A stretch of 64,000 bases of DNA from Eledone cirrhosa. Its lineage: Eukaryota. The stretch covers positions 61,256,001-61,320,000 of the forward strand of contig OZ024747.1 in NCBI GenBank assembly GCA_964016885.1, written 5' to 3'. A program made the translations under genes and the position numbers. Positions 1-53,283 of this stretch are shown in pieces. The notes beneath the pieces were generated by a model. The model was not told where the DNA came from, searched no databases, and saw nothing but the letters and a program-made list of their open reading frames with translations. How positions within the stretch are numbered: the stretch's first letter is position 1; each line of letters starts with the position of its first letter.

Positions 1-403
1 GTATGTATGTATATATATATATATATATGTATGTATATATATATGTATGTATATATATATGTATGTATATATATATGTATGTATATATATATGTATTTAT
101 GTATATATATATGTATGTATATATATATGTATGTATGTATATATATATATGTATGTATGTATATATATATATGTATGTATGTATATATATATGTATGTAT
201 GTATATATATAGGTATGTATGTATATATATATGTATGTATGTATATATATATGTATGTATATATATATATGTATGTATATATGTATGTGTATATATATAT
301 ATATATGTATGTATGTATATATATAGGTATGTATGTATATATATATGTATGTATGTATATATATATGTATGTATATATATATATGTATGTATATATGTAT
401 GTG

Positions 404-434
<31 letters not shown>

Positions 435-620
435 GTATATATATATGTATGTATGTATATATATATGTATGTATATATATATGTATGTATGTATATATAT
501 ATGTATGTATGTATATATATATGTATGTATGTATGTATATATATATGTATGTATGTATATATATAGGTATGTATGTATGTATGTATGTATATATATATAT
601 ATGTATGTATGTATATATGT
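1..620. repeat. Compound (TA)n/(TATG)n microsatellite
   Basis: Pure TATG/TA iterations; all overlapping Y/I/V/M/C-rich ORFs are translations of it. Confidence 0.98.
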
Positions 621-749
621 ACTTACAGTAAACATTGATGCAATTCACTTCAAGCTCTCTACGTACTTTTTCCACATGGGAATGACAGAGTATATTTAGA
701 ATAAGAAAATGTAAAGTAGTTGTAGATGTTAAAGTCTTTTATTGATAAG

Positions 750-824
750 GCTGTGATACATATTTCAATGACGACAGTGGCCACACGATTCCATGCAACC
801 AGTGCCATGATCTCATCAGACAGC
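750..824 (-). ncRNA. Type I hammerhead ribozyme, long stem II, minimal helix III
   Basis: Minus strand reads GCTGT-CTGATGA-[~21-bp G:U-rich stem II, GAAT loop]-GAAA-T-ATGT-A-TC|ACAGC; helix I GCTGT/ACAGC is perfect; cleavage triplet AUC. Confidence 0.82.
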
Positions 825-926
825 TTCATTACATAATAAGGTTACATTCTCAAGGCAATCCGAACTAAAACAAGAAGGGAACAGACAAAGATGATGTTCT
901 TGAAGCCTTCACCAATATATATCCTC

Positions 927-1422
927 ATCATCATCATCATCATTTTATGTCCGCTCTTCCCTGCTTGCAAAGGTGGGACGGGTCTTATTCAGCACAGCAT
1001 CTCTCCACTTGTCACGGTCCTTCATCATCTCCACCGTGAGCTTCAGTGATCTGAGGTCTGTTCTCACCACCTCTGCCCATATTTTTTGTGGTCTACCTCT
1101 ACCACGTCTTCCTTCAACTGGCATTTCCTGGCACTTCTTCACCCATCGGTCATCCTCCATGCGTATCACATGTCCATACCACCTCAGTCTCCTCTCTCGC
1201 ACACTACGTTCTATCCCTCTCAGACACATTCATGCTGGGTCGTTCATTGCACATCCAACGGAGCATGCTTGCCTCATTTCGCTCCAACCGTCGCATATCC
1301 TCTGCAGTTGCTGCCCATGTCTCACTACCATGCAACATCGCGCTCCTCACACAGGCATCATATAACCGGCCTTTCGTACACAGGGAGAAACCCTTCTTCA
1401 TCAGCAGAGGAAGCAGCTCCCT
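927..1422 (-). mobile_element. RTE-clade LINE, 5'-truncated 3' end
   Basis: ORF pieces KGRLYDACVRSAMLHGSETW...RRLRWYGHVIRM...RGRGRP..W...DRDKWR are typical of the RTE C-terminus; ends in an (ATG)n tail. Confidence 0.93.
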
Positions 1423-1430
1423 AATATATA

Positions 1431-1461
<31 letters not shown>

Positions 1462-1494
1462 ATCCATATACATACATATATATATGAAAGATCC

Positions 1495-1650
1495 AGCTGA
1501 ACTGTTGCCATTTCAACAGCTAGTTTCAAACTAGCTGTTGAAATGGCAATAGTTTAGTTATCATGGTCCTGACTCTTTCATATTACCACACTCTACTACC
1601 TCAAGTATCAAGTACTCTTGTGAGTAATGGTCTAACAGGTTTTTACTGCA
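1495..1650 (+). mobile_element. PLE-like pseudo-LTR fragment with terminal palindrome (1495-1559) holding the 3' half of an HHR
   Basis: Inverted repeat centred on C1527; GAAA-TGGC...GTTA-TC half core; related to 41020-41140 in the opposite orientation. Confidence 0.6.
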
Positions 1651-1934
1651 TCCATTTTAATTTATATATATGTGTGTGGCAGAAACTCAAGTTCGGGTAT
1701 AAATTGAAGGTACCCATTTACGTGTGTTGTGTTAAAACAAATAACTATGTGTATACTTTGGGAGTTTACTTATCATTACCTATGGTGTACACTGAGATAC
1801 AACCGGTACTAGTAGTGAAACCCATGCTAGTCCCATCAACTTATTCTTATATATATATGTATGTAATACAGACGACCCAACTTCCCACAGGTACAAGCCG
1901 AATCTGAAGCATATAGACAATATGCCCCCATCCC

Positions 1935-2188
1935 CTTCCACTGCAAAGTGGTCGTGGAGATGCCACACTGTAAAGTGGTCGTGGAGACTCTACAGAAAAA
2001 AATCACCCAGCATTCACTGTAAAGGAGGTTGGTGTTAGGAAGGGCATCCAGCTGTAGAAATCAAGTCAAAATCAGTTCCCGTATGAGCAAGACATAGTCA
2101 GCCGACCTGGCACTGTTCACAACAGAACAACCCGTCTAACTCATGCTGGTGTGGAAGATTGGACAGAAAATGGTAATGATGATGATGA

Positions 2189-2190
<2 letters not shown>
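1935..2190 (+). mobile_element. Non-autonomous RTE-tailed element (GGTGTTAGGAAGGGCATCCAGC module)
   Basis: Module recurs at ~13100, 18070, 20500, 25520, 26020, 32090, 41400, 60400; RTE-like 3' end with (GAT)n tail. Confidence 0.75.
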
Positions 2191-2236
<46 letters not shown>

Positions 2237-2241
<5 letters not shown>

Positions 2242-2720
2242 CAAAACATAAGTCAATTGCATGAACTCATAATCCTTTATTTACTGCTATATATATTTCG
2301 ATGATAGCCATTGAATGGCTATGACCTCATCAGGCAGTTAGTCAGTTCTTAGATATGCCAGCTCTGTGTTTATAGTGTTGATGGTATCAGAGCCTTGGGA
2401 CATACGAGCTTGTTAGGAATAATTTAATGTTGTCAGCAGGAATAGTCTTAATTCTCATTGGTCAGTTTGTAGAAGCTAGTAGGGTTGGTATTTGACCTCA
2501 AAGAGGCAGGTGGTGTTGTAAAGTTCAAACCATCAGACAAGATGACAATAGTTCCATATGACTGATTTTCACAAAAAGCATTCCTGGTCAGATATATATT
2601 CAATTGAGGTTTATAGTATGAAATTCAATACTACAGGGTATACTTAAATTGAGGAATTTCGTTTGTCCGTTGGTAATTTTGCCCGTTTTCTTGGACATTA
2701 TTTCAATGTTTGCTGCTGGC
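2237..2720 (-). mobile_element. Penelope-like element 3' remnant
   Basis: Broken frames give NIEIMSK...ISYYKPQLN, resembling a PLE GIY-YIG C-terminus, ~260 nt upstream of the HHR on the same strand; (TA)n on both sides. Confidence 0.55.
2283..2338 (-). ncRNA. Type I hammerhead ribozyme
   Basis: Minus strand: ACTGC-CTGATGA-GGTCATAGCCATTCAATGGCTATCATC-GAAA-T-ATAT-A-TA|GCAGT; helix I ACTGC/GCAGT; palindromic ATAT loop in helix III; AUA site. Confidence 0.85.
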
Positions 2721-2734
2721 ATATATATATATGT

Positions 2735-2982
2735 GAAGGCGCATGGCTTAGTGGTTAAAGCATTGGGCTTGCAATCGAAAGGTTGTGAGTTCAATTCTCA
2801 GACCGGGTGATGTGTTGTTTCCTTGAGCAAGACACTTTATTTCACATTGCTCCAGTTTACTCAGCTGTAGAAATGAGTACCGGCCAGCCCGCCCAGCCAG
2901 TGGGATGGCGTTACCTTATGGCTAAAACAGCACGATGTGACCAGCGGCGCCGATTAGCGCTCGACAGACTGGCCGGTCAAGG
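2735..2982 (+). mobile_element. tRNA-headed SINE, family 2 (TCCTTGAGCAAGACACTT core)
   Basis: A box TGGCTTAGTGG, B box GAGTTCAATTC; central motif of CORE/Meta-type SINEs; other copies at ~9393, 12525, 17095(-), 20298, 22378, 41168, 58645. Confidence 0.85.
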
Positions 2983-3009
2983 TGATATATATATATATAT
3001 ATATATATT

Positions 3010-3090
3010 TATTTATTAAAATAACAGATTAAAGTTTAAGCAAAGAATAGGATTCTTTGCTTAAACTTTAATCTGTTATTTTAATAAATA
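3010..3090. repeat. Perfect inverted repeat, 39-bp arms, 3-nt loop
   Basis: TATTTATTAAAATAACAGATTAAAGTTTAAGCAAAGAAT-AGG-reverse complement. Confidence 0.95.
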
Positions 3091-3174
3091 TTTGCTCTAA
3101 GGTTCCTATATATCTGATATATATTTATCCTTATCGAGCCCTCTTTGGATTTTAGTCTTCAAATTTATTATTAT

Positions 3175-3209
<35 letters not shown>

Positions 3210-3719
3210 GTTTTATTCCATTTTTCCACCTAAAACTTCAATAGGAAATTTGAAGTAAATGTTTTATTTCCTCTCACTTATGATGTGTCACATTTATCTA
3301 GAGGGGCTTCCATTCAACCCTAAAATTCTATTCAGTCCTGGTTGATAGATTTAATCCATCATGTGTATCAAATCTCTCTCTATCTCTCATGAACTCTGCT
3401 TCCTTCTTCTGTCAACCTTTGATAAATTTCAAAATTATGATGTGAATTTAATGGACCTTAATTTATTACTACTAATGAAACACAATGAAGCACAAACAAC
3501 AAATCATATTTGAATCATTATCATCTTCTTCCCCGTCTAATGTCTATATTTTATGTTTGGGTTAGATGAGTTGTAATGTTATGAGGCGAGACAGGTCAGT
3601 TGACCACATCTTGTTCAGACAGACAGGACCAGATTTAGACCTTAGAGGGTTCCGGGGATAGGTAGTTCATGTTTATGGGGCCCTCGTATAACAACACATA
3701 CATACACACACACATATAC

Positions 3720-3797
3720 ATATATTGGGTCGTCAAGTATGAAATTTGTAGAAATGTGTAGAAATAAAAGAAGTTTCTACAAATGTCATACTTGACG

Positions 3798-3808
<11 letters not shown>
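3720..3808. repeat. Inverted repeat, ~35-bp arms, ~19-nt spacer, between TA/CA tracts
   Basis: ATTGGGTCGTCAAGTATGAAATTTGTAGAAA versus TTTCTACAAATGTCATACTTGACGATCCAAT. Confidence 0.9.
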
Positions 3809-3837
<29 letters not shown>

Positions 3838-3964
3838 AAAGTTTTATTTAAAATTGTTGGGTTACAACGAGTAAATATTTTATAACTGATATAAAGCACT
3901 CAACAAGTTTTAGAGTAGATATACGATATTAAACAAATGGAAACTATATTTATAAAACCATATT

Positions 3965-4030
3965 TATTTCATTATACATATTTCAGGGATACCATATTAA
4001 AAATATGGCATGCCTTCCTCAGATAAAATA
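3965..4030 (-). ncRNA. Type I hammerhead ribozyme (left arm of palindrome)
   Basis: Exact reverse complement of 4156-4221. Confidence 0.83.
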
Positions 4031-4155
4031 CAATATATAAGCAGTTTTATAAATAAATTTGACGTACCATAAATATTGATCAACTTCCATTTCAAATGGA
4101 AGTTGATCAATATTTATGGTACGTCAAGTTTATTTATAAAACTGCTTATATATTG

Positions 4156-4221
4156 TATTTTATCTGAGGAAGGCATGCCATATTTTTAATATGGTATCCC
4201 TGAAATATGTATAATGAAATA
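4156..4221 (+). ncRNA. Type I hammerhead ribozyme (right arm of palindrome)
   Basis: TATTTTAT-CTGAGGA-AGGCATGCCATATT(TTT)AATATGGTATCCCT-GAAA-T-ATGT-A-TA|ATGAAATA; 8-bp helix I with one G:U. Confidence 0.83.
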
Positions 4222-4262
4222 AATATGGTTTTATAAATATAGTTTCCATTTGTTTAATATTG

Positions 4263-4294
<32 letters not shown>

Positions 4295-4402
4295 GCATGC
4301 CTGGTTTTTCTATCCATGCATGGACAGGAAAGGAATAACTATTACAGCTGAAATGTAACAAAATTTGAATAAACATCAAGTGAAAAATTAATATAATAAT
4401 AA

Positions 4403-5078
4403 TAATTGTTTCTACTTTTGGCACAAGGCCAGCAATTATTCAGTGCATTACTGGTACTTTATTTTATCTACCCCGTAAGGATGAAAGGCAAAGTTAACCT
4501 CGGCGGGATTTGAACTCAGACTGTAAAGGGAGGTAACTATGCTGGAAAGCATGGCGTCCGACCTTCTACTGATACTGCCAATCCAATAATAATGATTTCT
4601 AGTATAGGCACAAGGCCAGTAATTCTGGGGAGGGGGTCGATTAAATCGACCCCAGTACGTTACTGGTGCTTTATTTTATCAACTTCGTAAGGATAAAAGG
4701 CAAAGTTAACCTAGGTGGGATTTGAACTCAGACTGTAAAGGGCCGTAACTCTATGCTGCAAAGCATGGTGTTCGACGTTCTACCTATACTGCCAATCCAC
4801 TGCCCTTAATATAATAATAATTATGATTGTGTACAGTGCTCAGGTGCACTACAACTCATCAAAGGTGCATGTATAGTACATAGAATAATTGTTTCTACTT
4901 TTAGGCACAAGGCTAGCAATTACCCAGTGCATTACTGATACTTTATTTTATCGACCCCGTAAGGATGAAAGGCAAAGTTAACCTCGGCGGGATTTGAACT
5001 CAGAATGGCAAGGGCCGTAACTCTATGCGTCAAAGCATGGCGTCCGAACCTCTACCGATACTGCCAATCCACTGCCCT
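4403..5078 (-). mobile_element. Three tandem copies of tRNA-headed SINE family 1 (Nin/Deu-like core)
   Basis: Minus strand: A box TGGCAGTATCGG, B box GAGTTCAAATCC, core GCCTTTCATCCTTACGGGGTCGATAAAATAAAGTACCA, (TTA)n tail; copies at ~4403-4585, 4592-4808, 4887-5078. Confidence 0.9.
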
Positions 5079-5079
5079 T

Positions 5080-5442
5080 TTGTTTCATAATGGCAATGAA
5101 ACTAGGATGAACTCCAGATTGAAATGCCTCTGGATAGGATTGGATTTAGACCTGGGAGAGGGCATTTCAGGTTAGCCCACCCCCTCCCCCATTCCATACA
5201 CAACAAATTAGAATACACAGCAAAGCCCCCAATTTTACATATCAAAGTTAGCTTGGTGCAAGTAATTGGAACTGAAAAGTTATACATACAGGTATTAAAT
5301 TCAAAAAATTCTAACCATCCTAAAACTAAAAAGCCCAGCTGAGGGCACAAATAGATTACTACGGCTGACACTGGTGGTGCCCTCAACTGCAAGGAGGCCT
5401 GCGGCAATTGACCCCTCCCTCCCCCCTTAAAATCCGGCCCTG
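5080..5442. mobile_element. Interspersed repeat, probable hAT-type MITE
   Basis: Shared with 47660-47905 and, reversed, with 22910-23035; ends in CCGGCCCTG (CAGGGCCGG-type terminus). Confidence 0.55.
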
Positions 5443-5924
5443 CCTCTGGGTTTAAGATAGACTTAAAAATCTTCGGTCATCATCATCATCATCATTTAAC
5501 ATCCATCTTCCCTGCTAGCAAGGGTTAGCTAGGTCTGTACAGACCAAGTCAGTATTATTTAAGCAGAACTTCTGACTTCTCAGATGGGCCAGGGGCCTAC
5601 ATCTCACTTATATATACATTCCAGCAAGTTCTCTCCCTTGAAATTGAAACTAAACCAACCAATAAGGATGAAGCTTTTAAATCTATAAAGTTGTACCTTG
5701 AAAACTAAGTAACAAGTGTGTGAGTGGTGTCACTAGTGTTGAGTCAGTTGTATTAAAGTGAATATATTGAAGTGTGTGAAATGGTTAAAGAGGAATTAAG
5801 TGTTTGTATCTCTTGTACAGGAGAGATGAAAGAGATTATCTGACTAATCATAGCAAAGATAAAATACACACACTCACACACATATCATATGTATCATGTA
5901 TAAATTATATATGATTATATGTGT

Positions 5925-5925
5925 G

Positions 5926-5991
<66 letters not shown>

Positions 5992-6125
5992 CTATCTCTC
6001 TCTCTCTCTCTGTATATATATATACATTTATACAGATATATACATATATACAGATATATATATATATATACAAATATACAGATATATATATATATATATA
6101 TACAGATATATATATATATATATAC

Positions 6126-6205
<80 letters not shown>
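5925..6205. repeat. (TA)n / TACAGA(TA)n compound microsatellite
   Basis: Read directly. Confidence 0.95.
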
Positions 6206-6206
<1 letters not shown>

Positions 6207-6704
6207 TCTCAAGCGTGAAACTAATACTAATATCATTTGTACTGCCTCTTTTTTTTTTGTTCTCTGTTTATTTATTAAACTATATACAGTATATATATAA
6301 TATGAGAGAAAGCTAGATCAATTGATTGATGCATAGATATATTTCTAATGATTGATAGGTTTACCCCCCCCCCCCCCGCCACACACACACCCGCGCACAC
6401 CCACCCGCACACACCCACCCGCACCCACCCACCCACCCGCACCCACCCACCCGCACCCACCCACCCGCACACACCCACACACACCCACCCACACTCACCT
6501 ATGAATGACATATAGGGATACCTTATAATGAAAATGTTTGATGTTGCAGAGAAGAGTATATGTGTGTATATCTAATGTGTATGTATGTATAAATCTATAT
6601 AACTATATGTATAACTATATATATAACATAACATATATATAACTATATGTATATATGTATAAATCTATATATCTAATGTTTATACATATTTTGCAGGGGA
6701 CACA

Positions 6705-6763
<59 letters not shown>

Positions 6764-6786
6764 CATATATATATACATATATATAT

Positions 6787-6980
6787 AACGAAGGAAGTGT
6801 GGTAAGGAACCAGGTAGACCATAATGCACCAGAGTACTCAATACTTTGGGTAGTAGAGTGGGTAATAGGAAAAGAGTCAGAACGCCAACTGCAGAGCTCA
6901 AGCTGTTTTGACAGCTATTTCTAGAAATGGCTGTCGAAATAGCTTGAGCTCTACTGTCAAGATTCTGACTCTTTTCCTAT
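6787..6980 (-). mobile_element. PLE-like short repeat (family A) with 116-bp terminal palindrome (6865-6980)
   Basis: Homologous to 19062-19275 and 20632-20826; (TA)n on both sides; degenerate HHR 3' half. Confidence 0.75.
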
Positions 6981-7201
6981 ATATATATATATATGTAAAA
7001 GGTAAACAGAAATAACAACACAATCGGTACACTATATGGAAGAGATATATATATATATATATATATATCCCTTCCATATAGTGTACCTTTTACATACATA
7101 TATATATATGTCTGTGTGTCTGTATACCTATATATATATATATGTATGTATATATATATATATATAATATAAGATCAAAAGATGGTTAAAAGAGTTCCAT
7201 G

Positions 7202-7272
7202 TATTTTATTATGCGCATTTCAAAAACAAATATCATCATGGGATGATATTTGCGTTCTCATCAGATAAAATA
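7202..7272 (-). ncRNA. Type I hammerhead ribozyme
   Basis: Minus strand: TATTTTAT-CTGATGA-GAACGCAAATATCATC(CCAT)GATGATATTTGTTTTT-GAAA-T-GCGC-A-TA|ATAAAATA; perfect 8-bp helix I; palindromic GCGC loop. Confidence 0.88.
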
Positions 7273-7577
7273 GGGACATGATATGAAGCTTAAAAAACAC
7301 TTGCGAGCAGTGAAGTGTTAAATCAACATATTTCAAATGATTTGAAATGCACATAATTTCCAGCATAGTTACGTCCCTTTACGATCTGAGTTCAAATCCC
7401 GCCTCTGCCTTTCATCCTTACGGAGTCGATAAAATAAAGTACCAGTAATGCACTGGGTAATTGCTGGCCTTGTGCCTAAAGTAGGAACAATTATTTATAC
7501 TCCAGTCCTATAAACTGTTGAGTGCTACTTATCCAATATTTGCATTGCTTTATTGTGCTACAATACAACTCACCTCC

Positions 7578-7639
<62 letters not shown>

Positions 7640-7654
7640 TGTGTGTCTGTATAC

Positions 7655-7689
<35 letters not shown>

Positions 7690-7788
7690 CGTGTGTGCGT
7701 GTATAATATGTATATGTGTATATGTCTATATGCATATATGTCTGTATATATAAATGTCTGTATGTATATATATGTATATATGTAAATA

Positions 7789-7839
<51 letters not shown>

Positions 7840-8639
7840 GTCTGTGTGGTTAATGTGTATGATATGAATCTCTGTGTATATGTATCTAGTCTCTATGTCT
7901 ATATATGTATATGTGTATATATGTCTAGTCTTTATATCAATATATTTATATGCCTTCTGTGCTCAGCTTTCTGTATTAAGTCTTACAACACTTTGCTTTA
8001 AATCTTCATAATCAGGGTCGAAACCTTTAGCTGGACCCTAGTCTGTATGTGTGTGTGTATTTATGTGTGTTTGTGTATGTGTATGTATGTGTGTGAGTAT
8101 GTGTTTGTGTGAGGAAATTAATCTCATTTGTCTTCCATAATCAATGTTTTCATAGTAATGGCAATTGAAAGACAAAAAGAAACATTGAGAGACATTCTAT
8201 TCCGACCCCTCTTCCGCTACCCCAGAGTCCATCCCCACCTTTGCCACCACCAACCTGCTACTGTTGCTTCTCTTACAATAAAACCAATTAGGAAATAGAC
8301 AAATCTGATTAACTGCTTTTAGTTTTAGCTTATATTGTCTTCCATAACTTTCACAACATTGACAATTTCGACAGATGACTCCAAAACTTACTTTATATTG
8401 TTGGAACCAGGCCAAAACAGTGGATAGAACTGTCCTGAGAAAGCAAATGGACCAGTTACCATGGTTCAACAATTCTGAGAGACTCTATTGCCCTCAAGTT
8501 CTAATTCCTTTATTCTGTTCTGTTACCTATATGTACATCATGTACACTATATATATACCATGCACACTGTATATATATATGTGTGTGTAAGTCAATCACA
8601 CATCATGTATTTTACACTAAAATATTTAATGTGCAGTTG

Positions 8640-9035
8640 GATACATTTCACATATCACCAGCCTATATTTTACATCTGATTTGGAGGCCTTCATTTCACA
8701 GCTGGCTTGGGCTCATTATTAGCTTCAGGGTCCTTCATTTCACATCTGGCCTGGCCCCATTACTAGCTTTGAGGGCCTACATATCACAACTGGCTTGGGC
8801 CCATTACCAGATTTTGGGTCCTACATTTCATGCCTGGCCTGGGCCCATTACTAGCTCTAAGGGCCTACATTTCATGTCTGGTCTGAGCCTATTACTAACT
8901 TTAAAAGTCTACATTTCACATCTGGCCTGGGCTTGTTACTAGCTTTGGGAGGCTTATATTTTACATCAGGCCTTAGCTTGTTACTAGTTTGAGGGCATAC
9001 ATTTAATTTCTGGCTTGGATCTATTATCAGCTTTG
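8640..9035. repeat. Diverged ~44-bp minisatellite (~8-9 units)
   Basis: Consensus approx. GGGCCTACATTTCACATCTGGCCTGGGCCCATTACTAGCTTTGA. Confidence 0.85.
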
Positions 9036-10905
9036 CATTAGTCAGCATAGCATCAGACATATTTCTTTAGTTAGGTTAAGTTGTGGGTTCTCCCAGGGAA
9101 AGGCATGATTGTCACAACAACCCATCCATATTACCAATAAATACTATATTTTGTGGCTTGTGTAAAAAACATGATTATGTAAATAAATGTTTCGACACAA
9201 GGCCAGCAATTACCCCAGTGCATTATCGACCCCGTAAGGATGAAATGCAACGTTAACCTCAGCAGGATTTGAACTCAGACAGTAAAGGACCGTAACTCTG
9301 TGCTGCAAAGCATGGCATCTGACTCTTTACCGATACTGCCAGACCATCGCCCTGATTATGTAAATAATGTTACTATATTACATAATATCAGGAAGGTACA
9401 TGTCTTAGTGGTTAGAGGATTGGGCTCGCAATCGTGATGTGAGTTTGATTCTTGGGCCAGGTGATGCATTGTGTCCTTGAGCAAGACACTTTATTTCACA
9501 TTGCTCCAGTTTACTCAGCTGCAAAAATGAGTTGCAAAATCACTGGTGCCAAGCTGTATCAGTCATTGTCTTTCCCTTGGACAACATTGGTGGTGTGGAG
9601 AGTGGTAGACTGGTATGCATGGGCAACCGTTCGTCTTCCACAAACAACCTTGCCTGGACTTGTACCTTGGAGTGGCACTTTAGATGTAAATCCCATAGTC
9701 ATTCACGACCGAAGGGGGGGGGGTCTTTATCCTTTATTATATAATATTACATTGACTTCAGCTGAATGAGAAATTAAACTTCTCTTCTACCTGGTTTGAG
9801 TTTATGATGTAGAGAGATGAAGTTAATTTCTTTCACATACATTACCATTTCTGTCACTCCATTGCTTTTATATCACTAATACTGCTGGGAAAGGCATGAA
9901 TGTTACACATTCTCATTTACCTCCCTTCTATAAATCTGAGGTTTTAATATTGTATATACAAAATGTCCTGATGGGTGAGAAATAAATGATCGTTGCTTGA
10001 GCTGAAGTGGAAATGTGCATTGGGTAGAGGATTATGTGGTCTGGGGAGAGAGATAATTGTTTCTACTTTTGGCACAAGGCCAGCAATTACCCAGTGCATT
10101 ACTGGTACTTTATTTTATCGACCCCGTAAGGATGAAAGGCAAAGTTAAACTCAGAATAGCAAGGGCCGTAACTCTATGCGTCAAAGCATGGGGTCCAACC
10201 CTCTACCGATACTGCCAATTCAAGAGAGATAATGTGGGTTAGAGAAAGGTGATTATGTGAACTGGGTAGTCCCTTTACGGACTGGATTTGAACTCAGTCC
10301 GTAAAGGGACGTAACTAATAATAACTACTACTAATAATAATACTGTTGCCACCACTACCACTGTTACTGCTACTAGTACTACTTCCATTACCACCACCAC
10401 CACCACCACCACCACCACTACTACTACTACCAGTAGAGAATGACAAATGTAAATGTGTCCAACTTCACCCCACCTCACCCCACTTTTCCTTTTAAAAGCT
10501 CATCATTGAAGTGTTACTTCTGTCCAAATTGATAAAATATTAGCCAGTGAAATACCAAGTAAACCTACTAAATTGTACATTTTGTTAGCAAGAGACTATG
10601 AGAAATGGTGACAAATAAACATTTTTATGGGATACCAACTGCATCATAATTCAACAAGTCCAATTTAAATCATTAAATATGCTTTCACTTATATAATGTA
10701 ATTATCATGTCAATGATGGCTTTCCATTCAATTATCCTGTAATTTTGTGTAGTGGACTAACAAGTTGAGACACTAATTAAATATATGGTTAAATTTCCTA
10801 CTTCTCTGCCATATTTCAAGTTAAGTTGATTGTGTTAACTCAATGACAAACAATACATTAACCCTATGATGGATACAGTGAGTGGAAACACTTGTACGGC
10901 CAGTT

Positions 10906-11582
10906 GTAAGGTCAACAGTTGCTGCATGTTCTTATAAGGTCAGCAGTTGCTACATGTATTCATGAGGTCAACAGTTGCTACATGTACTCACAAGGCCAGC
11001 AGTTGCTACATGTCCTTATAAGGTCAACAGTTACTACATGTACTTCTTAGGTCAACAGTTGCTACATCTCCTTATAAGGTCAAAATTGCTACATGTTCTT
11101 ATAAGGTCAAAAGTTGTTACATGTTCTTATAAGGTTAACAGTTGCTACATGTTCTTACAAGGTCGACGGTTGCTACATGTCATTGTAAGGTCAACAGTTG
11201 TTACATGTTCTTATAAAGTCAACAGTTGCTACATGTTTTTACAAGGTCGACGGTTGCTACATGTCATTGTAAGGTCAACAGTTGCTACATGTTCTTATAA
11301 GGTCAAAAGTTGCTACATGTTCTTATAAGGTCAAAAGTTGCTACATGTTCTTATAAGGTCAACAGTTGTTACATGTTCTTATAAGGTCAACAGTTGCTAC
11401 ATCTCCTTATAAGGTCAAAAGTTGCTACATGTTCTTATAAGGTCAAACGTTGCTACATGTTCTTATAAGGTCAACAGTTGCTACATGTTCTTATAAGGTC
11501 AACAGTTGCTACATGTACTTCTAAAGTCAACAGTTGCTACATCTCCTTATAAGGTCAACAGTTTCAACATGTACTTATAAAG
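10906..11582. repeat. 28-bp minisatellite (~24 units)
   Basis: Unit TAAGGTCAACAGTTGCTACATGTTCTTA. Confidence 0.95.
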
Positions 11583-11627
11583 CTACATGTTAATGGTTCA
11601 CATTAATGGAGAGCACACCCACATTAA

Positions 11628-11997
11628 CCCTTTAGTTACCAACCCAGCCAAAACCACCCATTTGAAAAGTTTCCAATTTAAATTAAAATCTTCCAACAAA
11701 ATTTTATATAAGAACCTTACATTAAGTTACTATCTTAGTAATTGTTACTACTTTTGGCACAAGGCCAGCAATTATCCCAGTACATTACTGGTACTTTATT
11801 TTATCGACCCCCGTAAGGATGAAAGGCAAAGTTAACCTCGACAGGATTTGAACCCCGACCGTAAAGGGACATAACTATGCTGGAAAGAATGGCGTCCGAC
11901 CCAATGAAATGATTGATAATTTTAGTAAATCCCTCAAAATTTTTCATCAATTATATAAACTAGAACATATTCCAATAGAAATGTGGCCATGAAAGGG
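11628..11997. mobile_element. piggyBac-type MITE with nested family 1 SINE (~11738-11902)
   Basis: TTAA|CCCTTT ... AAAGGG|TTAA termini; internal sequence shared with ~27590-27920 and ~38220-38530. Confidence 0.7.
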
Positions 11998-13149
11998 TTA
12001 ACAAATGGCTGGCTATTTTTTTATGCTTCCATTCTTTTACTGGTTTAAGTCATTTGATTGGCACTGTACTGGGGCACTGCTGTCAAGATTTTAGTGAATC
12101 ATATTGATCCAAGTGCTTATTTACTGAAAGTCTGGTGCTTATTTCATCAATCTCTGTTTGTCAAACTTCTAAGTTATAGAATGTAAGCACGTAGTATCAG
12201 TTGTTAAGCAATATATTTACAATTGACAAACTGACAGACATGAACAGACAAGCACACGCATGCACACACGCACACACATGCACACACGCACACACATGCA
12301 CACACATGCACACACCCACATGCATACACACAACACACATGCACACACCCACATCCACCTGTATACACTCACACATGCACACACCCACATCCACCTGTAT
12401 ACACACACACACATGCACACACACACACCCACACCACACACACACAAAAACATATATCTAACAGACTTCTGCACAGTTCTAATCTACCAAATTTCACTCA
12501 TAAGGAATTGGTCAACCTGAGGTTTAGTCAGTGTGATTAATGGTTAAGGTGTTAGTCCCTCAATTGAAACTTCGTGGGTTCAATCCTTGGGGCATGTGAC
12601 AGGTTGTACTCTTGAGCAAGGTACTTCATTTCATATTATGCCAATCCAGCACAGCATCTAGGATATGGGGAACGGGGTGGTAACCTTTCAACAGACTGCC
12701 GCCGGCCTAAGTCTTGTACTCACAGTCTCTTAATGCAACATAAAACCAGAATAAGATCTGGCCTGATGAAGGATTTTAACCCTTTAGTGTTTAAACTGGA
12801 TATATCCAGCCAGAATTCTCTCACCTCTTTCTGTTCAAACTGGTCACAACCGGCCACTCATACTAATGTTAAAGTATTGTTCTCAAAATAAATAATATCA
12901 AAATTTCATAGATTTGATATTATGTGAAATAATTATGTAAGGTAAAGCCTTTACCGTGAAAATATAATAGTATATATATAGAGTAATCATCATCATCATC
13001 ATCATCATCATCCTCACTGTTTAACACACTGGCATGGGCTCGAATAGTTATCCTGTTTTGAACAATGCCAAGTCAGGTGACCATGTCTTGCTTGTACAGA
13101 ACTGATTTTGGCTTGGTTTCTACAGCTGGATGCCCTTTCTAGTACCAGC

Positions 13150-19061: not shown

Positions 19062-19066
<5 letters not shown>

Positions 19067-19274
19067 AATGAGTAGGACCCCGACGGCTGAGCTCAAGCCG
19101 TTTCGACGGCTAATTCTGGACTAAAATAAAAATTTTAGTCCAGAATTAGCCGTTGAAATGGCTTGAGCTTAGCCGTCGGGGTCCTACTTGTTCCTATTAC
19201 CCACTCTATTACCCTAAGTATTGAGTACTTTGGTGCGTTATGGTCCACCTGGTTCCTTACCACATTTCCTTCGT

Positions 19275-19275
<1 letters not shown>
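19062..19275 (+). mobile_element. PLE-like short repeat (family A) with 136-bp palindrome (19062-19197)
   Basis: HHR 3' half GAAA-(C/T)GGC-TTGAGCT(T/C)A-GCCG-TC|GGGGTC on both arms; (TA)n flanks. Confidence 0.78.
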
Positions 19276-19301
<26 letters not shown>

Positions 19302-19994: not shown

Positions 19995-20182
19995 ATATTA
20001 TTTAAAATGTTAATAAATGAAAAATATTCTCATACTCAAAATATATATTTTATTATACATATTTAAAAAGTACAATGGTGTTTAAGTATGTTTTCACACC
20101 ATTGTACCTTTGAACTATGTATAATAAAATATATATTTTGATTATGATAATATTTTTCATTTATTAACATTTTGAATAATAT
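19995..20182. repeat. Diverged ~190-bp palindrome with decayed HHR 3' halves
   Basis: Arms pair over ~90 bp; GAAC-TATGTATA-ATAAAATA matches the 3' halves of the 4156 and 7202 ribozymes. Confidence 0.8.
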
Positions 20183-20622: not shown

Positions 20623-20631
20623 GAATATATA

Positions 20632-20826
20632 TAACAAAGGAATTGTGGTAAGGAACCAGATGGACCATAACGCACCAGAGTACTCAATACTTAGGATATT
20701 AGAGTGGAAAATAGGAAAAAGTATGACCCCGACGGCAGAGCTCAAGCCGTTTTGACGGCTATTTCCGTCCAGAAATAGCCATCAAAACGACTTGAACTCT
20801 GCCGTCGGGGTCATACTTTTTCCTAT
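20632..20826 (-). mobile_element. PLE-like short repeat (family A) with palindrome 20711-20826
   Basis: Apex GACGGCTATTTC-CGTCCA-GAAATAGCCATC; helix III CGGC...GCCG-TC. Confidence 0.78.
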
Positions 20827-20930
20827 ATATATATATATATGAGTCCCAGGTTCAATCAGGAGTAACCACAGTAAGTGAGGTACTCAATACATTAGAAGAG
20901 TGTAAACATCATGCTTAATATAGAAATGTA

Positions 20931-20979
20931 TTCTACAAGACTAGAACTGTTTCATTCAAAAGAAATCATCAGGAAAGCC
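20931..20979 (-). ncRNA. Hammerhead ribozyme motif (family C)
   Basis: Minus strand: GGCTTTC-CTGATGA-TTTC(TTTT)GAAT-GAAA-CAG-TTCTAGTC-TTG-TA|GAA; short stem II with non-canonical U-U base. Confidence 0.62.
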
Positions 20980-33184: not shown

Positions 33185-35900
33185 CAGCTTGTCAAGGAAC
33201 AAAACATGGTTCTATTACTGAATTGACCAGCTTGTCAGAGAACAAAACGTGGTTCCATTACTGAATTGACCAGCTTGTCAGGGAACAAAACATGGTTCTA
33301 TTAATGAATTGACCAGCTTGTCAGGGAACAAAACATGGTTCTATTACTGAATTGACCAGCTTGTCAGGGAACAAAACGTGGTTCTATTACTGAATTGACC
33401 AGCTTGTCAGGGAACAAAACGTGGTTCTATTACTAAATTGACCAGCTTCTCAGGAAACAAAACATGGTTCTATAACTGAATTGACCAGCTTGTCAGGGAA
33501 CAAAACGTGGTTCTATTACTGGATTGACCAGCTTGTCAGGGAACAAAACATGGTTCTATTACTGAATTGACCAGCTTGTCAGGGAACAAAACGTGGTTCT
33601 ATTACTGGATTGACCAGCTTGTCAGGGAACAAAACGTGGTTCTATTACTGAATTGACCAGCTTGTCAGGGAACAAAACGTGGTTCTATTACTGAATTGAC
33701 CAGCTTGTCAGGGAACAAAACGTGGTTCTATTACTGAATTGACCAGCTTGTCAGGGAACAAAACGTGGTTCTATTACTGAATTGACCAGCTTGTCAGGGA
33801 ACAAAACGTGGTTCTATTACTGAATTGACCAGCTTGTCAGGGAACAAAACGTGGTTCTATTACTGAATTGACCAGCTTGTCAGGGAACAAAACGTGGTTC
33901 TATTACTGAATTGACCAGCTTGTCAGGGAAGAAAACATTGTTCTATTACTGGATTGACCAGCTTGTCAGGGAACAAAACGTGGTTCTATTACTGAATTGA
34001 CCAGCTTGTCAGGGAAGAAAACATTGTTCTATTACTGGATTGACCAGCTTGTCAGGGAACAAAACATGGTTCTATTACTGGATTGACCAGCTTGTCAGGG
34101 AAGAAAACATGGTTCTGTTACTGAAATGACCAGATTGTCAGGGAACAAAACGTGGTTCTATTACTGAATTGACCAGATTGTCAGGGAACAAAACGTGGTT
34201 CTATTACTGGATTGACCAGCTTGTCAGGGAACAAAACGTGGTTCTTTTACTGGATTGACCAGCTTGTCAGAGAACAAAACGTGGTTCTATTACTGGATTG
34301 ACCAGCTTGTCAGGGAATAAAACATGGTTCTATTACTGGATTGACCAGCTTGTCAGGGAACAAAACGTGGTTCTATTACTGAATTGACCAGCTTGTCAGG
34401 GAAGAAAACGTGGTTCTATTACTGGATTGACCAGCTTGTCAGGGAACAAAACGTGGTTCTATTACTGGATTGACCAGCTTGTCAGGGAACAAAACGTGGT
34501 TCTATTACTGAATTGACCAGCTTGTCGGGGAACAAAACATGGTTCTATTACTGAATTGACCAGCTTGTCAGGGAACAAAATGTGGTTCTATTACTGAATT
34601 GACCAGCTTGTCAGGGAACAAAATGTGGTTCTATTACTGAATTGACCAGCTTGTCAGGGAACAAAACGTGGTTCTATTACTGAATTGACCAGCTTGTCAG
34701 AGAACAAAACATGGTTCTATTACTGGATTGACCAGCTTGTCAGGGAACAAAACGTGGTTCTATTACTGAATTGACCAGCTTGTCAAGGAACAAAACATGG
34801 TTCTATTACTGAATTGACCAGCTTGTCAGGGAACAAAACGTGGTTTTATTACTGAATTGACCAGCTTGTCAGGGAAGAAAACATGGTTCTATTACTGGAT
34901 TGACCAGCTTGTCAGGGAACAAAACGTGGTTCTATTACTGGATTGACCAGCTTGTCAGGGAACAAAACGTGGTTCTATAACTGAATTGACCAGCTTGTCA
35001 GGGAACAAAACGTGGTTCTATTACTGAATTGACCAGCTTGTCAGGGAACAAAACATGGTTCTATTACTGAATTGACCAGCTTGTCAGGGAACAAAACGTG
35101 GTTCTATTACTGAATTGACCAGCTTGTCAGGGAACAAAACATGGTTCTATTACTGAATTGACCAGCTTGTCAGGGAACAAAACATGGTTCTATTACTGAA
35201 TTGACCAGCTTGTCAGGGAACAAAACATGGTTCTATTACTGAATTGACCAGCTTGTCAGGGAACAAAACGTGGTTCTATTACTGAATTGACCAGCTTGTC
35301 AGGGAACAAAACATGGTTCTATTACTGAATTGACCAGCTTGTCAGGGAACAAAACATGGTTCTATTACTGAATTGACCAGCTTGTCAAGGAACAAAACGT
35401 GGTTCTATTACTGAATTGACCAGCTTGTCAGGGAACAAAACGTGGTTCTATTACTGAATTGACCAGCTTGTCAGGGAACAAAACATGGTTCTATTACTGA
35501 ATTGACCAGCTTGTCAGGGAACAAAACATGGTTCTATTACTGAATTGACCAGCTTGTCAGGGAACAAAACGTGGTTCTATTACTGAATTGACCAGCTTGT
35601 CAGGGAACAAAACGTGGTTCTATTACTGAATTGACCAGCTTGTCAGGGAACAAAACATGGTTCTATTACTGAATTGACCAGCTTGTCAGGGAACAAAACA
35701 TGGTTCTATTACTGAATTGACCAGCTTGTCAGGGAACAAAACATGGTTCTATTACTGAATTGACCAGCTTGTCAGGGAACAAAACGTGGTTCTATTACTG
35801 AATTGACCAGCTTGTCAGGGAACAAAACATGGTTCTATTACTGAATTGACCAGCTTGTCAGGGAACAAAACATGGTTCTATTACTGAATTGACCAGCTTG
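33185..35900. repeat. 43-bp satellite array (~63 units)
   Basis: Unit GACCAGCTTGTCAGGGAACAAAAC(A/G)TGGTTCTATTACTG(A/G)ATT, head-to-tail, no spacers. Confidence 0.98.
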
Positions 35901-40769: not shown

Positions 40770-41167
40770 ACATTTTCAATTTCTTTTCTTTATACATACA
40801 TACATCATCATCATCATCATCATCATCGTTTAACGTCCATCTTCCACGCTTGCATGGATTGGTTGTCTTGCTCGCATAGGACTGTCTGGCGGGTTTTCTA
40901 CGGCTGGATGCCCTTCTTAACACCAACCACGTTTACAGTGTGGACTGGGACGGTTTTACCATGTTACATACACGGCCACATTACAGCGTATATATATATA
41001 GAGGAATCAGGATAGAACCAGTTTAAAACTAGTTAGACCATTACTCAACAGAGTACTTGATACTTGATGTAGTAGAGTATGGCTATATTATAAAGAGTCG
41101 GGACCTGATGGCTGAGTTCTTGCCATTTCAATAGCTAGTTAATTTATATATAAAATATATATATAAT

Positions 41168-42176: not shown

Positions 42177-43625
42177 GCTTTCTTTATTAACCACAAGGGT
42201 TTACATAAAGTAGACATTAAGGACTGTACAGGACAATACAGGACGGTACAAATGGGCATTTCTGCGTGTAAAAAAAACAGAGGATGTAATAAAAAATAAC
42301 AATCTCATAGCGCTCAGCGTCGACCGTCGAGATGCGCAGCAAGCCGTCAAAGTAGGGACTGAAATCCGCTACTCTCTCTGACTCGCCACTCTCCCTGAAC
42401 AACCGAGCAAAGTGCTGGCAAAAGGCCTCACACATCCGCTTGGAATCGTTTATCTCGTGTCCGTTTCGGTCCGCCAAAGACCGAATTGTGGTTTTATTAC
42501 CACGCTGCACCTCCGCCACGCGGGCCCATCGAACAGCTTTAGTTCCCTCGTTTCTCAGCGCATGCACCTTAGCTCTGACAATGCAACCTTCGTGTTTGGC
42601 ATTGAAGAAATGGTCTAATGCCATTCTCTCCGCTAGCACGTCAGTTGCGATGCCACTACAAATAGCCTCGTCTAACTTATCTACCAGCTCCCCCTCCTTT
42701 CTATGTTTCTCTAACGCTAGTTCTTTGCTGAACTCTATCGAAGTTACTCTAATCTCTCTTTTGAGAGCCCCCCACCATCTGTTGTTGATGATCCCCCCTG
42801 TCAACTTTTGCTTAACTAAATTGTTGACTCGGTCCCTGTAAGCCTTACGTGCCGGAAATGACATGTTCAGCTTCCAGTAATCCGGTCCTAACCTACGCGT
42901 TTTATTTAGGTCGACCGTACAGATCACAAATTTGTGATCTGAATAGGCAACCGTTTTAAAAAGTGGGCAGCCCACACTATTTCTATCTATTTTCCTAATG
43001 AAGATCCTGTCTATATACGATCTAGATGACCCCATTCGGTTGGTCCATGTCCATACTGGCACATTGGGGAAATCTAGTCTATACCTGTCAGACAGTTGGA
43101 ACTGGCTGAGTAGGTGCTTGAGGCTTTTGCACCCCCCGCTCCTATCAGCTACTCCCACACAATCCCAGCGTGCGTCTAAGATGCCATTCCAGTCCCCCGC
43201 TAACAGTAAAGGGCGAGACGTACCCAGAAAGGTCTCCAGGCGCCTAAAGAAGTCAGGTCGTCCGGCCCCTGTAGGGGCGTAGATGGCCAGCAGTCTAAAG
43301 GCACCACCTTCGCTACTGCTCACATCCCAGACCACCAACTTACCGTCCGGGTCCCGGAAGATCGACCTTACCTCGAGATCCAGTCCTTTCCTTAACAGCA
43401 CTGCCACCCCACCCTCCATTCCCGGCCTGCTAACAGATGCGAAGATCTGATAGTCGTCGAAAATGGGGGCTAGTGCGCGCTTGTCGGAAATTCTGGTCTC
43501 GCTTACGGCAATCACATCCATTTCCAGCGACCGGAGGTCATTGAGCAGGCGACCCTGCTTCCAGGGTGACCCCAGGCCGCGAACATTTAAATTTCCTACT
43601 CTTAATATGGCCATATTGGAAAGCT
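42177..43625 (-). mobile_element. Tx1/L1-clade retrotransposon derivative; APE endonuclease ORF (42217-43614, 465 aa) with RT deleted
   Basis: APE motifs NVRGL, SET, IYAP, GDWN, WTW...SYIDRI, SDH, YWKLN; frame jumps from ...VDAERYE into the 3' UTR; (TTA)n tail. Confidence 0.92.
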
Positions 43626-43639
43626 AAGAGAGAGAGAGG

Positions 43640-43975
43640 GAAGGTTTAGAAACATTAACCACAGACACAGCAGCAGCGACCACAGTAGTAATAACGGTAA
43701 CAATACAAACAACAACAACAATAACCACAGTGGTAATAATGGAAATAGTACATGTAGCAACATCAATGATAGACACAACAAAAACAAGAAACATAATAAA
43801 AGTAACAACCACAATGGTAGAAATAACAGTAACAACAACAATAACGGTGAAGTAAACAACAATACATCTAGCAATCATAACAATAATAATAATGCTAATG
43901 ATAGAAACAACAACAACCACCATGATAACAATAATAGCAACACACACAACTATGACGATAGATATAATGACAACC
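43640..43975. repeat. (AAC/AAT/AGT)n low-complexity tract
   Basis: Read directly. Confidence 0.85.
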
Positions 43976-44414
43976 CCTTAGAGAAACTATTTTTCAACCC
44001 AGCTGACAAAACATATAAGATGGGTAATATCTATCCTACGAGGTTACCCTTTAATAAAAGAGTTTGCATACCACAACAAATAGATGACAAGACAGAGGCA
44101 CAGTTCACCATAGCTAGAAATAAGATTAGACAAATAGTAGACAGGTATACTAAGAGACAGAGCAGACCAGAGGCCCAACAACTTGGGAGGAAACCTGTAG
44201 AAGGCTTGGTTAGCCTCAAGCAGCGCACAAGGGATGGTGAGTAAATAAAATAAAATAAATAAATAAATAAATAAATAAAGCACAATAACAACAAGCACAT
44301 AAACACACACTAGTCACCCATCACACGGCAAACAAAACACTATACACACACGCAAACGCATGCGCAAAGAAGACAAAATAAAATAAACAAACAAGCAAAT
44401 AAATAAATAAATAT

Positions 44415-46351: not shown

Positions 46352-47425
46352 GATCATCATCATCATCATCATCATTTAACGTCCATCTTCCACGCTTGCA
46401 TGGGTTTGGACGGGAGTTTTCCCACTTGAGGCAAGAGTTGTTGTCATGCTCGCATAGGACTGTCTGGCGGGTTTTCTACGGCTGGATGCCATTCCTAACA
46501 CCAACCATGTTTACAGTGTGGACTGGGAGGTTTTTACTGTGTTGCCTACACGGCCACATTACAGCGTGGACTGTGTGTTTTTTTTGTCGTGACACCTACA
46601 CGACCTCATTTGTTTCGGACTGGATGTTGTGGTACCAACATAACTTTACATTGAAAGGGGTGGTGTGGATGGGGTGGGGGTAGTGGGACGGAGATGTATT
46701 TTTGTTAGAGGTGTCTACTGACTGTAGTAGGTTTCACTTTGTACTTAGGTAAGGCAGGTCTTCTGTATTACTGTGTAGCGCCAAAGATCTCGGTCCAGTG
46801 ACATTGTCTTGGAGAGGTGTAAGTGTGTGAGGTCGGAATTTATCAAGTCGTCCCAGGTTTTTCTGGGTCTGCCTACTCCGTGGCTACCGTCTATTTTTAT
46901 TGACCTGCACTTTTTTATACAGCTGTCGTCTTTCATGCGCATCACGTGACCATACCAACGTAGTCTTCTATCGAGTAAACAACATCTGATCCCTCTTATT
47001 TCTAATTTTTCCCTTAGTTTGTTTATGCTTTGCCGTTCACGTATATTACTATTACACATCCAGCGGAGCATGCAAGCTTCATTCCTCTCCAGTCTGCGTA
47101 TATCCTCTGCACACAATGCCCAGGTCTCACTGCCATGTAACATTACTGTTCTATGCAGGCATCATACAGCCTGCCTTTCATTTTTAGAGAGAACCCTTTA
47201 GCAGCTAATAGTGGTATAAGCTCTCTGAACTTTTTCCAACCAGTTCTGACTCTAGCTACTGTACTTTCAGAGCACCCTCCACCACTGCTGATTTTGTCAC
47301 CCAAGTAATGAAAGGTGTCCACTATTTCTATAGAACCATCTGTGCAATGGAATGAGCTAGTATTTTTGGGCACTTGCTGCTACTTATTGCACCAGAGCAC
47401 CGGCCACATATAAAATCTATGTTCT
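46352..47425 (-). mobile_element. RTE LINE, 5'-truncated, with long 3' UTR
   Basis: FHYLGDKISSGGG...KGRLYDAC / MLHGSETW...RRLRWYGHVMRM...GRPRKTW with one frameshift. Confidence 0.93.
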
Positions 47426-52600: not shown

Positions 52601-53283
52601 TCGACTATTTTAAATTGTGGACAACTTATCTAGTTCTTTGCAGAATACCCTATCAAGATACGATCTGGATGACCCGATGCGGTTTGTCCATGTCCACATT
52701 GGCACATTCGGGTGATCCAGTCGATACCTGTCAGACAGTTCAAAACGTCTGAGCAGGTTGGTGAGGCTCTTGCACCCTCCTCCCCTATCCACTAGCCCCA
52801 CACAATCCCAGCATGCATCCAAGATACCGTTCCAGTCGCCCACTAACACTAAAGAGCGGGACGTTCCAAGAAAGGTCTCTAGACGTCTGAAGAAATCTCG
52901 CCGTCCTGCCCCTGTTGGGGCGTAGACGGCTACTAGCCTGAAAGCATTGCCTTCGCTGCCAGTCACGTCCAGCACCACCGACTTACCTTCTGGGTCTAGG
53001 AAGATGGCCCGTATTGCGAGATCCAAGCCCCTCCAAAAAAGGACGGCAACCTCTCCCCCCGATCCTGGACGGCTGGGAGATGTGTATACATCGTAGCCGC
53101 CGAAGATCGGTGCAAAGGCTTGTGCTTCGGAGATTCTGGTTTCACTGATGGCCACCACATCTATGTTTAGTGACCTGAGGTCGTTGAGCAGGTGACCCTG
53201 CTACCAAGATGACCCCAGGCCACGTGCATTTATGCTGCCTATTCTGAGTATGGCCATGTTGGATGAGAAACGGGGCAAGTGAG
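49603..53283 (-). mobile_element. Tx1/L1-clade retrotransposon, near-complete but disrupted ORF2 (53257-49888), no ORF1
   Basis: APE domain; RT motifs KSPG..GLP, NFRPITLLN, DQSKAFDRVDH, VRQGCPLS, KINQKKS, KLLGVWF; Cys-rich C-terminus; several stops and frameshifts; (TTA)n tail. Confidence 0.94.

Follow-up and report, generated by a model that had tools for sequence, protein, structure and literature searches.

This report concerns a 64,000-nt stretch of the genome of Eledone cirrhosa (assembly GCA_964016885.1, contig OZ024747.1, positions 61,256,001 to 61,320,000 of the forward strand), referred to below as the window, and a group of hammerhead ribozyme (HHR) motifs near its start. We consider it likely, with a probability of roughly two in three, that the four divergent motifs, here named A, B, C and D, are type I HHRs from the pseudo-long terminal repeat (pseudo-LTR) 3' ends of Penelope-like elements (PLEs) truncated in (TA)n DNA, and that these HHRs would be nearly silent as monomers and would cut only once tandem copies pair. 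A fifth motif, C', is the inverted twin of C, and the coordinates of all five are given in Table 1. Most of the papers cited below are represented by excerpts, to which the statements credited to them refer; the exceptions are the search descriptor, the Fig. S3 rows and the pseudo-LTR HHR features of PMC4209133.

A descriptor scan of both strands of the window returned six type I candidates, the five motifs and one at 58210-58268 that has a different, short-stem design. The five motifs lie where an earlier sequence-only reading had placed them, with intact CUGANGA, GAAA and UH cores in all. The type I order C3UGANGA9 / G12AAA / N-U16.1-H17 is kept in 5/5 with zero core mismatches, position 16.2 is A because position 15.2 is U, and the loops (ATGT, ATAT, ATGT, ATGT and GCGC in A, B, C, C' and D) and the cleavage triplets are those that the earlier reading gave. 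Its count of five HHRs of one design holds for the design and falls short on the number, as only four motifs are independent because those at 3965 and 4156 are the arms of one inverted repeat.

The layout was matched in none of 200 block-wise dinucleotide shuffles, and a derived pattern, less independent since it was built from the hits themselves, in none of 100. Among the four distinct motifs all 48 cells of stems I and II are paired and seven of the 12 pairs are changed on both sides; this covariation score was reached by 0/500 shuffles, in a test with four sequences only and a structure that we specified. By folding z-score (-1.4 to -3.1) the motifs stand out only modestly. Rfam reported no hammerhead at gathering score in the 64 kb, nor was there one among the 150 matches listed, of 155, at E<=10 for positions 1-9000. 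A covariance model recovered from the window the five motifs, then 12755-12816 (E 0.74) and a locus at 20 kb (E 0.77); the former was rejected as a further copy, being without GAAA/UH. Two extra two-mismatch matches from a degenerate scan of the window sit in simple repeats and were also rejected. In prokaryotic genomes (596 Gb) the pattern had 26 matches, which we regard as chance; all of them lack the stem II ladder, and none forms at least 4 bp in stem I, and so the pattern without its stems carries no meaning. A conserved stem I bulge like that of the Schistosoma HHRs was not seen in the motifs. Judged by their sequences, the five motifs are genuine type I hammerhead folds, for which cleavage is predicted.

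The length of stem II had been put at 12-21 bp. That range holds if mismatched positions are counted (21, 12, 14, 14 and 16 in A, B, C, C' and D), whereas the true pairs number 19, 11, 13, 13 and 15, i.e., 11-19 bp. The core spacers are 46, 27, 31 and 36 nt (A, B, C and D), and the calculated stability of the stem is -9.5 to -18.5 kcal/mol. All four motifs share a further feature that is absent from the earlier reading, a C·Y mismatch at position 4: counted from the core, the ladder opens with three pairs, which a mismatch (C·C in A, B and C; C·U in D) separates from a long helix. Mismatches occupy five of the 48 ladder positions, and the probability that random placement would give a shared position is 0.0013, a value calculated post hoc. 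Position 4 is about the site where a canonical 4-bp stem II passes into loop II. This loop makes the tertiary contact with stem I (PMC3088659), and the mismatch, standing where canonical HHRs begin loop II, would be a likely docking or protein-contact site.

Helix III is the other unusual part. Its tetraloop is self-complementary in 4/4 motifs if G·U pairs are allowed (chance about 5e-4), as the earlier description of the loops as palindromic would have it, and strictly so in only 2/4. The four divergent loops retain their self-complementarity although they include G·U variants and a double-sided change in which A-U has become G-C. Folded as a monomer hairpin, the helix III 8-mer has an energy of +4.7 kcal/mol, and closing helix III inside one molecule, in context, costs 2.7-3.9 kcal/mol; the self-duplex, with 8/8 positions paired, has -2.2, -3.2, -2.2 and -10.5 kcal/mol (A, B, C and D). 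Because monomer closure is unfavorable while the 8-mer pairs at 8/8 positions with a second copy, these energies point to cleavage as a dimer in a tandem transcript as the likely mode. The rule behind this, that a vestigial helix III with a palindromic loop goes with dimer action, had been called established in the sequence-only reading and has indeed been published for metazoan and PLE HHRs (PMC4209133).

In the mechanism that we propose, two HHR copies in one tandem transcript would pair through their palindromic helix III 8-mers and be cleaved. This double-hammerhead cleavage would probably be helped by the element's own protein, as in the Poseidon element of Anolis, and the feeble activity of the monomer would keep the RNA intact for target-primed reverse transcription. 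The Anolis Poseidon HHR is described as protein-assisted, with the uncut RNA as the insertion substrate (PMC11167929).

Table 1. Hammerhead motifs of the window and the elements that carry them
Feature	Position	Strand	Core	Stem I	Stem II	Helix III 8-mer	Predicted cut; triplet	Remarks
HHR A	747..827	-	755-819	5 bp	19 bp, C·C at position 4	AUAUGUAU	after C at 755; AUC	
HHR B	2280..2341	-	2288-2333	5 bp	11 bp, C·C at position 4	AUAUAUAU	after A at 2288; AUA	
HHR C	3965..4030	-	3973-4022	8 bp	13 bp, C·C at position 4	AUAUGUAU	after A at 3973; AUA	
HHR C'	4156..4221	+	4164-4213		13 bp		AUA	twin identical to HHR C, on the opposite arm of the inverted duplication; stem I likewise 8 bp
HHR D	7202..7272	-	7210-7264	8 bp	15 bp, C·U at position 4	AUGCGCAU	after A at 7210; AUA	
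Element of HHR A	621..915	-						likely 5'-truncated; between AT-rich microsatellites; AAUAAA 12 nt past the cut site
Element of HHR B	2238..2720	-						likely 5'-truncated; between (TA)n runs; no match for the upstream open reading frame
Inverted duplication, head-to-head (HHR C and C')	3919..4267	.						174-nt arms; 1-nt center at 4093; 2 differences, 98.9% identical; (TA)n on the right
Extension on the left arm only, 84 nt	3835..3918	-						ends at (TA)n; likely a one-sided PLE tail, as judged from a single copy
Element of HHR D	7172..7345	-						likely 5'-truncated; (TA)n about 40 nt past the cut site
Sixth locus of the design	19995..20182	.						inverted pair; arms 93% identical and each reduced to the motif's 3' half

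The DNA around the motifs points to PLEs. PLEs are known for an inverted 5'-truncated copy, a one-sided tail and a preference for (TA)n targets (PMC8557442), and PLE HHRs occur mostly as solo truncated copies and in opposite-strand pairs 100-700 bp apart (PMC4209133). In the window this inverted architecture is present at 3919-4267 and at 19995-20182, and again in two other HHR-bearing families, whose tails are confirmed by second copies. At the sixth locus the arms keep a decayed GAAA, TATGTA, UA and the 3' strand of stem I; the center is a 14-nt loop inside stem II, and the identity to the HHR C element is 76% over 55 nt. AAUAAA begins 0-12 nt past the cut site in 4/4 motifs (background 1.7% each), and an AT microsatellite ends each element 43-140 nt past that site. 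Beyond the motif the flanks of the four HHRs do not align to one another. It is therefore likely from this architecture that the four HHRs are carried at the ends of 5'-truncated PLEs. In all five motifs DNA is retained on both sides of the scissile bond, which means that the RNA that was copied was uncut or re-ligated. The HHR-bearing remnants, 170-480 nt long, are too short to hold an open reading frame (ORF) for the reverse transcriptase (RT) and endonuclease. The copies in the window are likely to be fossils, because there is no same-strand partner of the same family and because read-through of the inverted pair buries the ribozyme in a duplex: when the locus at 3919-4267 is read through, it folds at -265 kcal/mol with the HHR wholly paired to its antisense twin.

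Several findings weigh against this interpretation. HHRs C and D have stem I in common and may be related, which would reduce the effective number of independent motifs to possibly three; by our arithmetic the probability of the shared mismatch then rises to about 0.014. The 10.1-11.1 pair is G-U, G-C, A-U and G-U across the four motifs, i.e., G-C in only 1/4, and the unpaired nucleotide between A9 and 10.1, a published hallmark of minimal HHRs, is present in 0/4. The U-A rich dimer helix is weak in 3/4 motifs (-2.2 to -3.2 kcal/mol), and no same-strand tandem or direct copy of any of the four occurs in the window. No PLE RT or GIY-YIG ORF was linked to any motif, Pfam having no match at E<=0.1 in six upstream frames of elements A and B, which are short and decayed, and the extensions of 84-100 nt compare with tails of 30-40 nt described for PLEs. 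The proposal that the motifs form a distinct, dimer-dependent subtype with an extended stem II is plausible: the long stem II and the self-complementary 8-mer speak for it, and against it stand the number of sequences, four, and a comparison descriptor that is blind to long stems.

A wider proposal can be attached to this, which is possible and which we put forward with some doubt. The motifs would belong to a class of PLE HHRs invisible to published descriptors, with a fixed stem II module (3 bp, C·Y and a long distal helix) in which the docking or RT-protein contact is provided by the mismatch in place of loop II; the long hairpin would also act as the snap-back primer from which the inverted pseudo-LTRs of PLE insertions are built. 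The window has seven inverted HHR-bearing loci between 1500 and 58333, and in five of them the center of the palindrome lies 12-30 nt upstream of GAAA, in the stem II region; in the remaining two it precedes the core by 5 and 70 nt. The positions of these centers suggest snap-back priming at the hairpin.

The alternative that survives best concerns the loop, and it was part of the sequence-only reading: the functional loop would be ACGT, and the ATGT and ATAT copies would have decayed from it after insertion. Some of the evidence is in accord with this. The CpG observed/expected ratio is 0.43, with TpG at 1.27 and CpA at 1.25; in another remnant family of the window 13 of the 18 CpG arm-sites have decayed; ATAT would be the outcome of decay on both strands; and the full duplex would be stronger with ACGT (-6.5 kcal/mol) than with ATGT (-2.2), while ACAT would break the pairing (+0.4). 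However, the loop is ATGT in 5/5 arms at three loci and in none of them ACAT or ACGT, whereas decay in the control family runs both ways (TG 8, CA 4, TA 1, CG 5; n=18). Both of the 98.9% identical C arms have ATGT, while their two remaining CpG sites behave differently, the CpG being preserved on both arms at the first and a single arm being altered at the second, and ATGT is common to elements that are just 76% identical. UAUGUA is self-complementary through two G·U pairs, and so no CpG repair is required. As the arms of an inverted repeat may be homogenized, the five arms amount to three independent loci and a weak test of CpG decay. The transposons of octopus are reported to be hypomethylated (PMC9476566). 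We conclude that decay after insertion is unlikely and that a genomic consensus of ACGT finds no backing at the loci of the window. Judged by its distribution among the arms, ATGT probably predates insertion and was carried by the source elements; it may have arisen from a CpG at an earlier time in the master element, three loci being too few to decide.

It is more unlikely still that the PLE HHRs cleave as monomers, the core being steadied by an element protein or by the long, C·Y-bearing stem II, and the palindrome being a leftover. The stability of stem II (-9.5 to -18.5 kcal/mol) would suit this explanation, as would the weakness of the dimer helix in 3/4 motifs, the lack of a partner copy nearby and the Anolis Poseidon HHR, which cleaves only with its protein (PMC11167929). 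It leaves unexplained that self-complementarity is retained in 4/4 divergent loops, the double-sided change and the G·U variants included; moreover, monomer closure is unfavorable, and an axolotl HHR of the same helix III class is poor as a monomer (PMC7229834).

We also consider it quite improbable that the motifs are solo copies of non-LTR retrozymes, which are non-coding HHR repeats that spread via small circular RNAs, instead of ends of coding PLEs. The remnants, at 170-480 nt, fall in the retrozyme size range and no ORF was detected in them, and retrozymes are often monomers and are derived from PLEs (bioRxiv 10.64898/2026.07.22.740005). However, no tandem repeat in the window, of the 170-400 nt usual for retrozymes or of any other size, holds an HHR, inverted pairs that are extended on one side and end in (TA)n are characteristic of PLEs, and retrozyme HHRs have canonical helices with loop 1-loop 2 contacts, which a stem II of 11-19 bp cannot supply in the usual way. 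Finally, it is very improbable that the four same-strand HHRs within 6.5 kb are a co-opted cluster that heterodimerizes in one host transcript and processes it. In its favor, all four have a minus-strand copy in 755-7264 (span chance 0.004 under uniform placement), and A, B and C match one another at 8/8 positions when their helix III 8-mers are cross-paired. However, 29 of the 97 (TA)6+ runs are in the first 8 kb and partly explain the clustering, the adjoining SINE-like repeats (short interspersed nuclear elements) lie in both orientations, cross-pairing comes readily to 8-mers rich in AU, and the 8-mer of D is a poor match for the rest.

The window holds other HHR families. The second design is found at 58194-58333, on both arms, and at 20900-20977 (-); it has a short 3-bp stem II with an extra U on each side, which is a Hydra-clade-like layout, and a 4-bp helix III with an 8-nt loop. 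The center of its inverted pair is 5 nt upstream of the core, and a tail on one arm is common to the copy at 20.9 kb. A third family consists of (TA)n-flanked palindromes at 1500-1641, 6782-6980, 19062-19280, 20628-20826 and 41027-41140, whose arms carry an HHR 3' half (GAAA, a helix III of 5-6 bp, a palindromic loop and GUC) and a tail of about 80 nt on one arm; all five loci start 12-24 nt upstream of GAAA, and an intact copy was not found in the window. Three further TA-flanked palindromes, at 3010-3090, 3714-3814 and 7026-7087, are without a recognizable HHR and are possibly very short inverted element ends.

For the rest, the window consists of animal DNA that is rich in AT microsatellites and contains remnants of SINE-like elements and LINEs (long interspersed nuclear elements). 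Decayed LINE remnants are seen at 42217-43623 (-), 49888-53200 (-), 46745-47161 (-), 930-1410 (-) and 63133-63510 (+). Pfam places APE endonuclease and RT domains at 42217-43623, 51533-52570 and 63133-63510, and the other LINE remnants were recognized by their appearance; one LINE ORF has five matches, of which the only one with a taxon name is to the octopod Argonauta hians at 54%, in accord with an octopod host. In 17 frames and ORFs Pfam found L1/RTE-type domains only, at a distance from the HHRs. Two pieces recall PLE proteins and are named here as our assumption. The end of an ORF piece at 43942-44244 (+) presumably resembles the part of PLE RTs that precedes their DKG motif, which is unverified; the piece was rejected as PLE, having no Pfam match and no homologue among 24 candidates. 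A K-P-Q-L-N stretch in one frame upstream of HHR B (2340-2720, -) would, we presume, recall GIY-YIG C-termini, which no search confirmed. One upstream frame of element B, run as a profile against 1.84 billion proteins, matched a single entry, an unrelated cadherin-repeat protein, and we dismissed this match as spurious. A tRNA-like SINE head lies at 2744-2801 (+), with 32 bits for the Rfam tRNA and no ARAGORN gene. A second dispersed SINE-like family is present in both orientations (4400-5080, 7360-7500, 9175-11924), and beyond the HHR D element a SINE-like repeat begins at about 7360. A young 43-bp tandem array at 33185-35900 has 63 copies with 96% matches.

How do these motifs compare with known HHRs? 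The comparison set consisted of 56 PLE HHR rows from the supplement of PMC4209133 (Fig. S3) and 34 rows from File S2 of PMC8557442. The former were collected with a descriptor that allowed a stem II of 3-7 bp, a loop of 3-10 nt and no insert in helix III, and because of these limits a long stem II could not have been found there; the core-only search of Craig et al. (PMC8557442) used a core spacer of 7-17 nt. The extension of stem II, which the earlier reading had proposed, is borne out, since the stems here are longer than those of all 56 + 34 rows: they have 11-19 bp and spacers of 27-46 nt, while the 56 rows go no further than 8 bp and about 23 nt and the 34 no further than 9 bp, the published range being 3-9 bp overall. 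By eye, in an unsystematic count, two of the 56 rows carry a mismatch at their fourth pair. Literature searches, with subscription papers mostly outside their reach, returned no paper on cephalopod long-stem HHRs or on a position-4 mismatch.

The long stem II and fixed C·Y lie outside the census descriptors (3-7 bp stem II; 7-17 nt spacer) and the Rfam models, and HHRs of this kind may therefore, as a whole set, have escaped the censuses of cephalopods and of other groups. Situated where canonical HHRs have loop II, the conserved mismatch would also provide a site to mutate in asking how weak PLE HHRs become activated, by dimerization or by protein, and the inverted structure of PLE insertions, so far unexplained, could be approached through the palindromes centered in stem II.

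The small PLE HHR variants of Lünse, Weinberg and Breaker (2017; via PMC6765202 and PMC6466107) have a diminished palindromic stem III and cleave as dimers; their set may already contain long-stem-II motifs. The newt satellite 2 and axolotl HHR_Amex1 ribozymes (PMC7229834) are like the motifs here in having a single extra base pair and a palindromic tetraloop in helix III, and HHR_Amex1 shows 6% cleavage as a monomer and much more as a dimer. However, these retrozyme HHRs occur in tandem repeats of 330-350 bp and make canonical loop 1-loop 2 contacts, whereas those here are solo or inverted copies with a long stem II.

The Hydra-clade PLE HHRs, including Hydra-1_oBim of Octopus bimaculoides (PMC8557442), share with our motifs the host group, the preference for (TA)n targets and a location some 100 nt before the 3' end. 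Their stem II of 3-7 bp and helix III of 3-4 bp with a 1-3 nt loop are fitted by none of the motifs here, and in the excerpts no sequence likeness to the four was seen by eye. The 'HHR_half_core' of the Naiad elements (PMC8557442), known in Octopus and Euprymna, also has (TA)n targets and core halves 35-50 nt apart. We tried and rejected an identity with it, as the 3' ends of the cephalopod consensus sequences compared differ in layout and the Octopus ones have GAAA before CUGAUGA. The layout was present at none of the 30 CUGAUGA places listed, of 62, in the Naiad consensus file, and four loop-specific 11-mers had one match, inside an ORF, in a search in which line breaks can hide matches. Several Naiad half-core 3' ends in the supplement of PMC8557442 look permuted by eye, with the strand of the cleavage site inside or before the core halves, which suggests that Naiads may carry HHRs of unusual topology.

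The closest relatives are the PLE pseudo-LTR HHRs (PMC4209133), of which the rows compared include D. willistoni, D. virilis and Aedes (Cervera and de la Peña 2014). Metazoan and PLE HHRs are described there as having a helix III of 1-2 bp, a palindromic loop of 2-4 nt, dimer action and an enlarged helix II of 7-8 bp. The motifs here share with the pseudo-LTR HHRs the type I fold, a palindromic helix III, an enlarged helix II, a short helix I and AUH triplets, and likewise the occurrence mostly as solo truncated copies and in opposite-strand pairs; the D. willistoni row even has the same GAAA-U-tetraloop-A-UA layout. The AUC and AUA triplets, which the sequence-only reading set apart from the common GUC, are no peculiarity, as a hand count of the 56 rows gives AUH in 16 (AUC 9, AUA 2, AUU 5) and GUC in 14. 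Three published features of minimal HHRs are departed from: the length of stem II (about 5-8 bp in the pseudo-LTR HHRs), the extra unpaired nucleotide after A9 and the G10.1-C11.1 pair, the last kept in 1/4; the conserved C·Y at position 4 is a further difference. In conclusion, the literature already has the dimer model, a palindromic helix III of short length and AUC/AUA triplets, and what appears to be new, by comparison of sequences, is a stem II of 11-19 bp together with the position-4 C·Y, i.e., a structural variant made of 3 bp, C·Y and a long distal helix.

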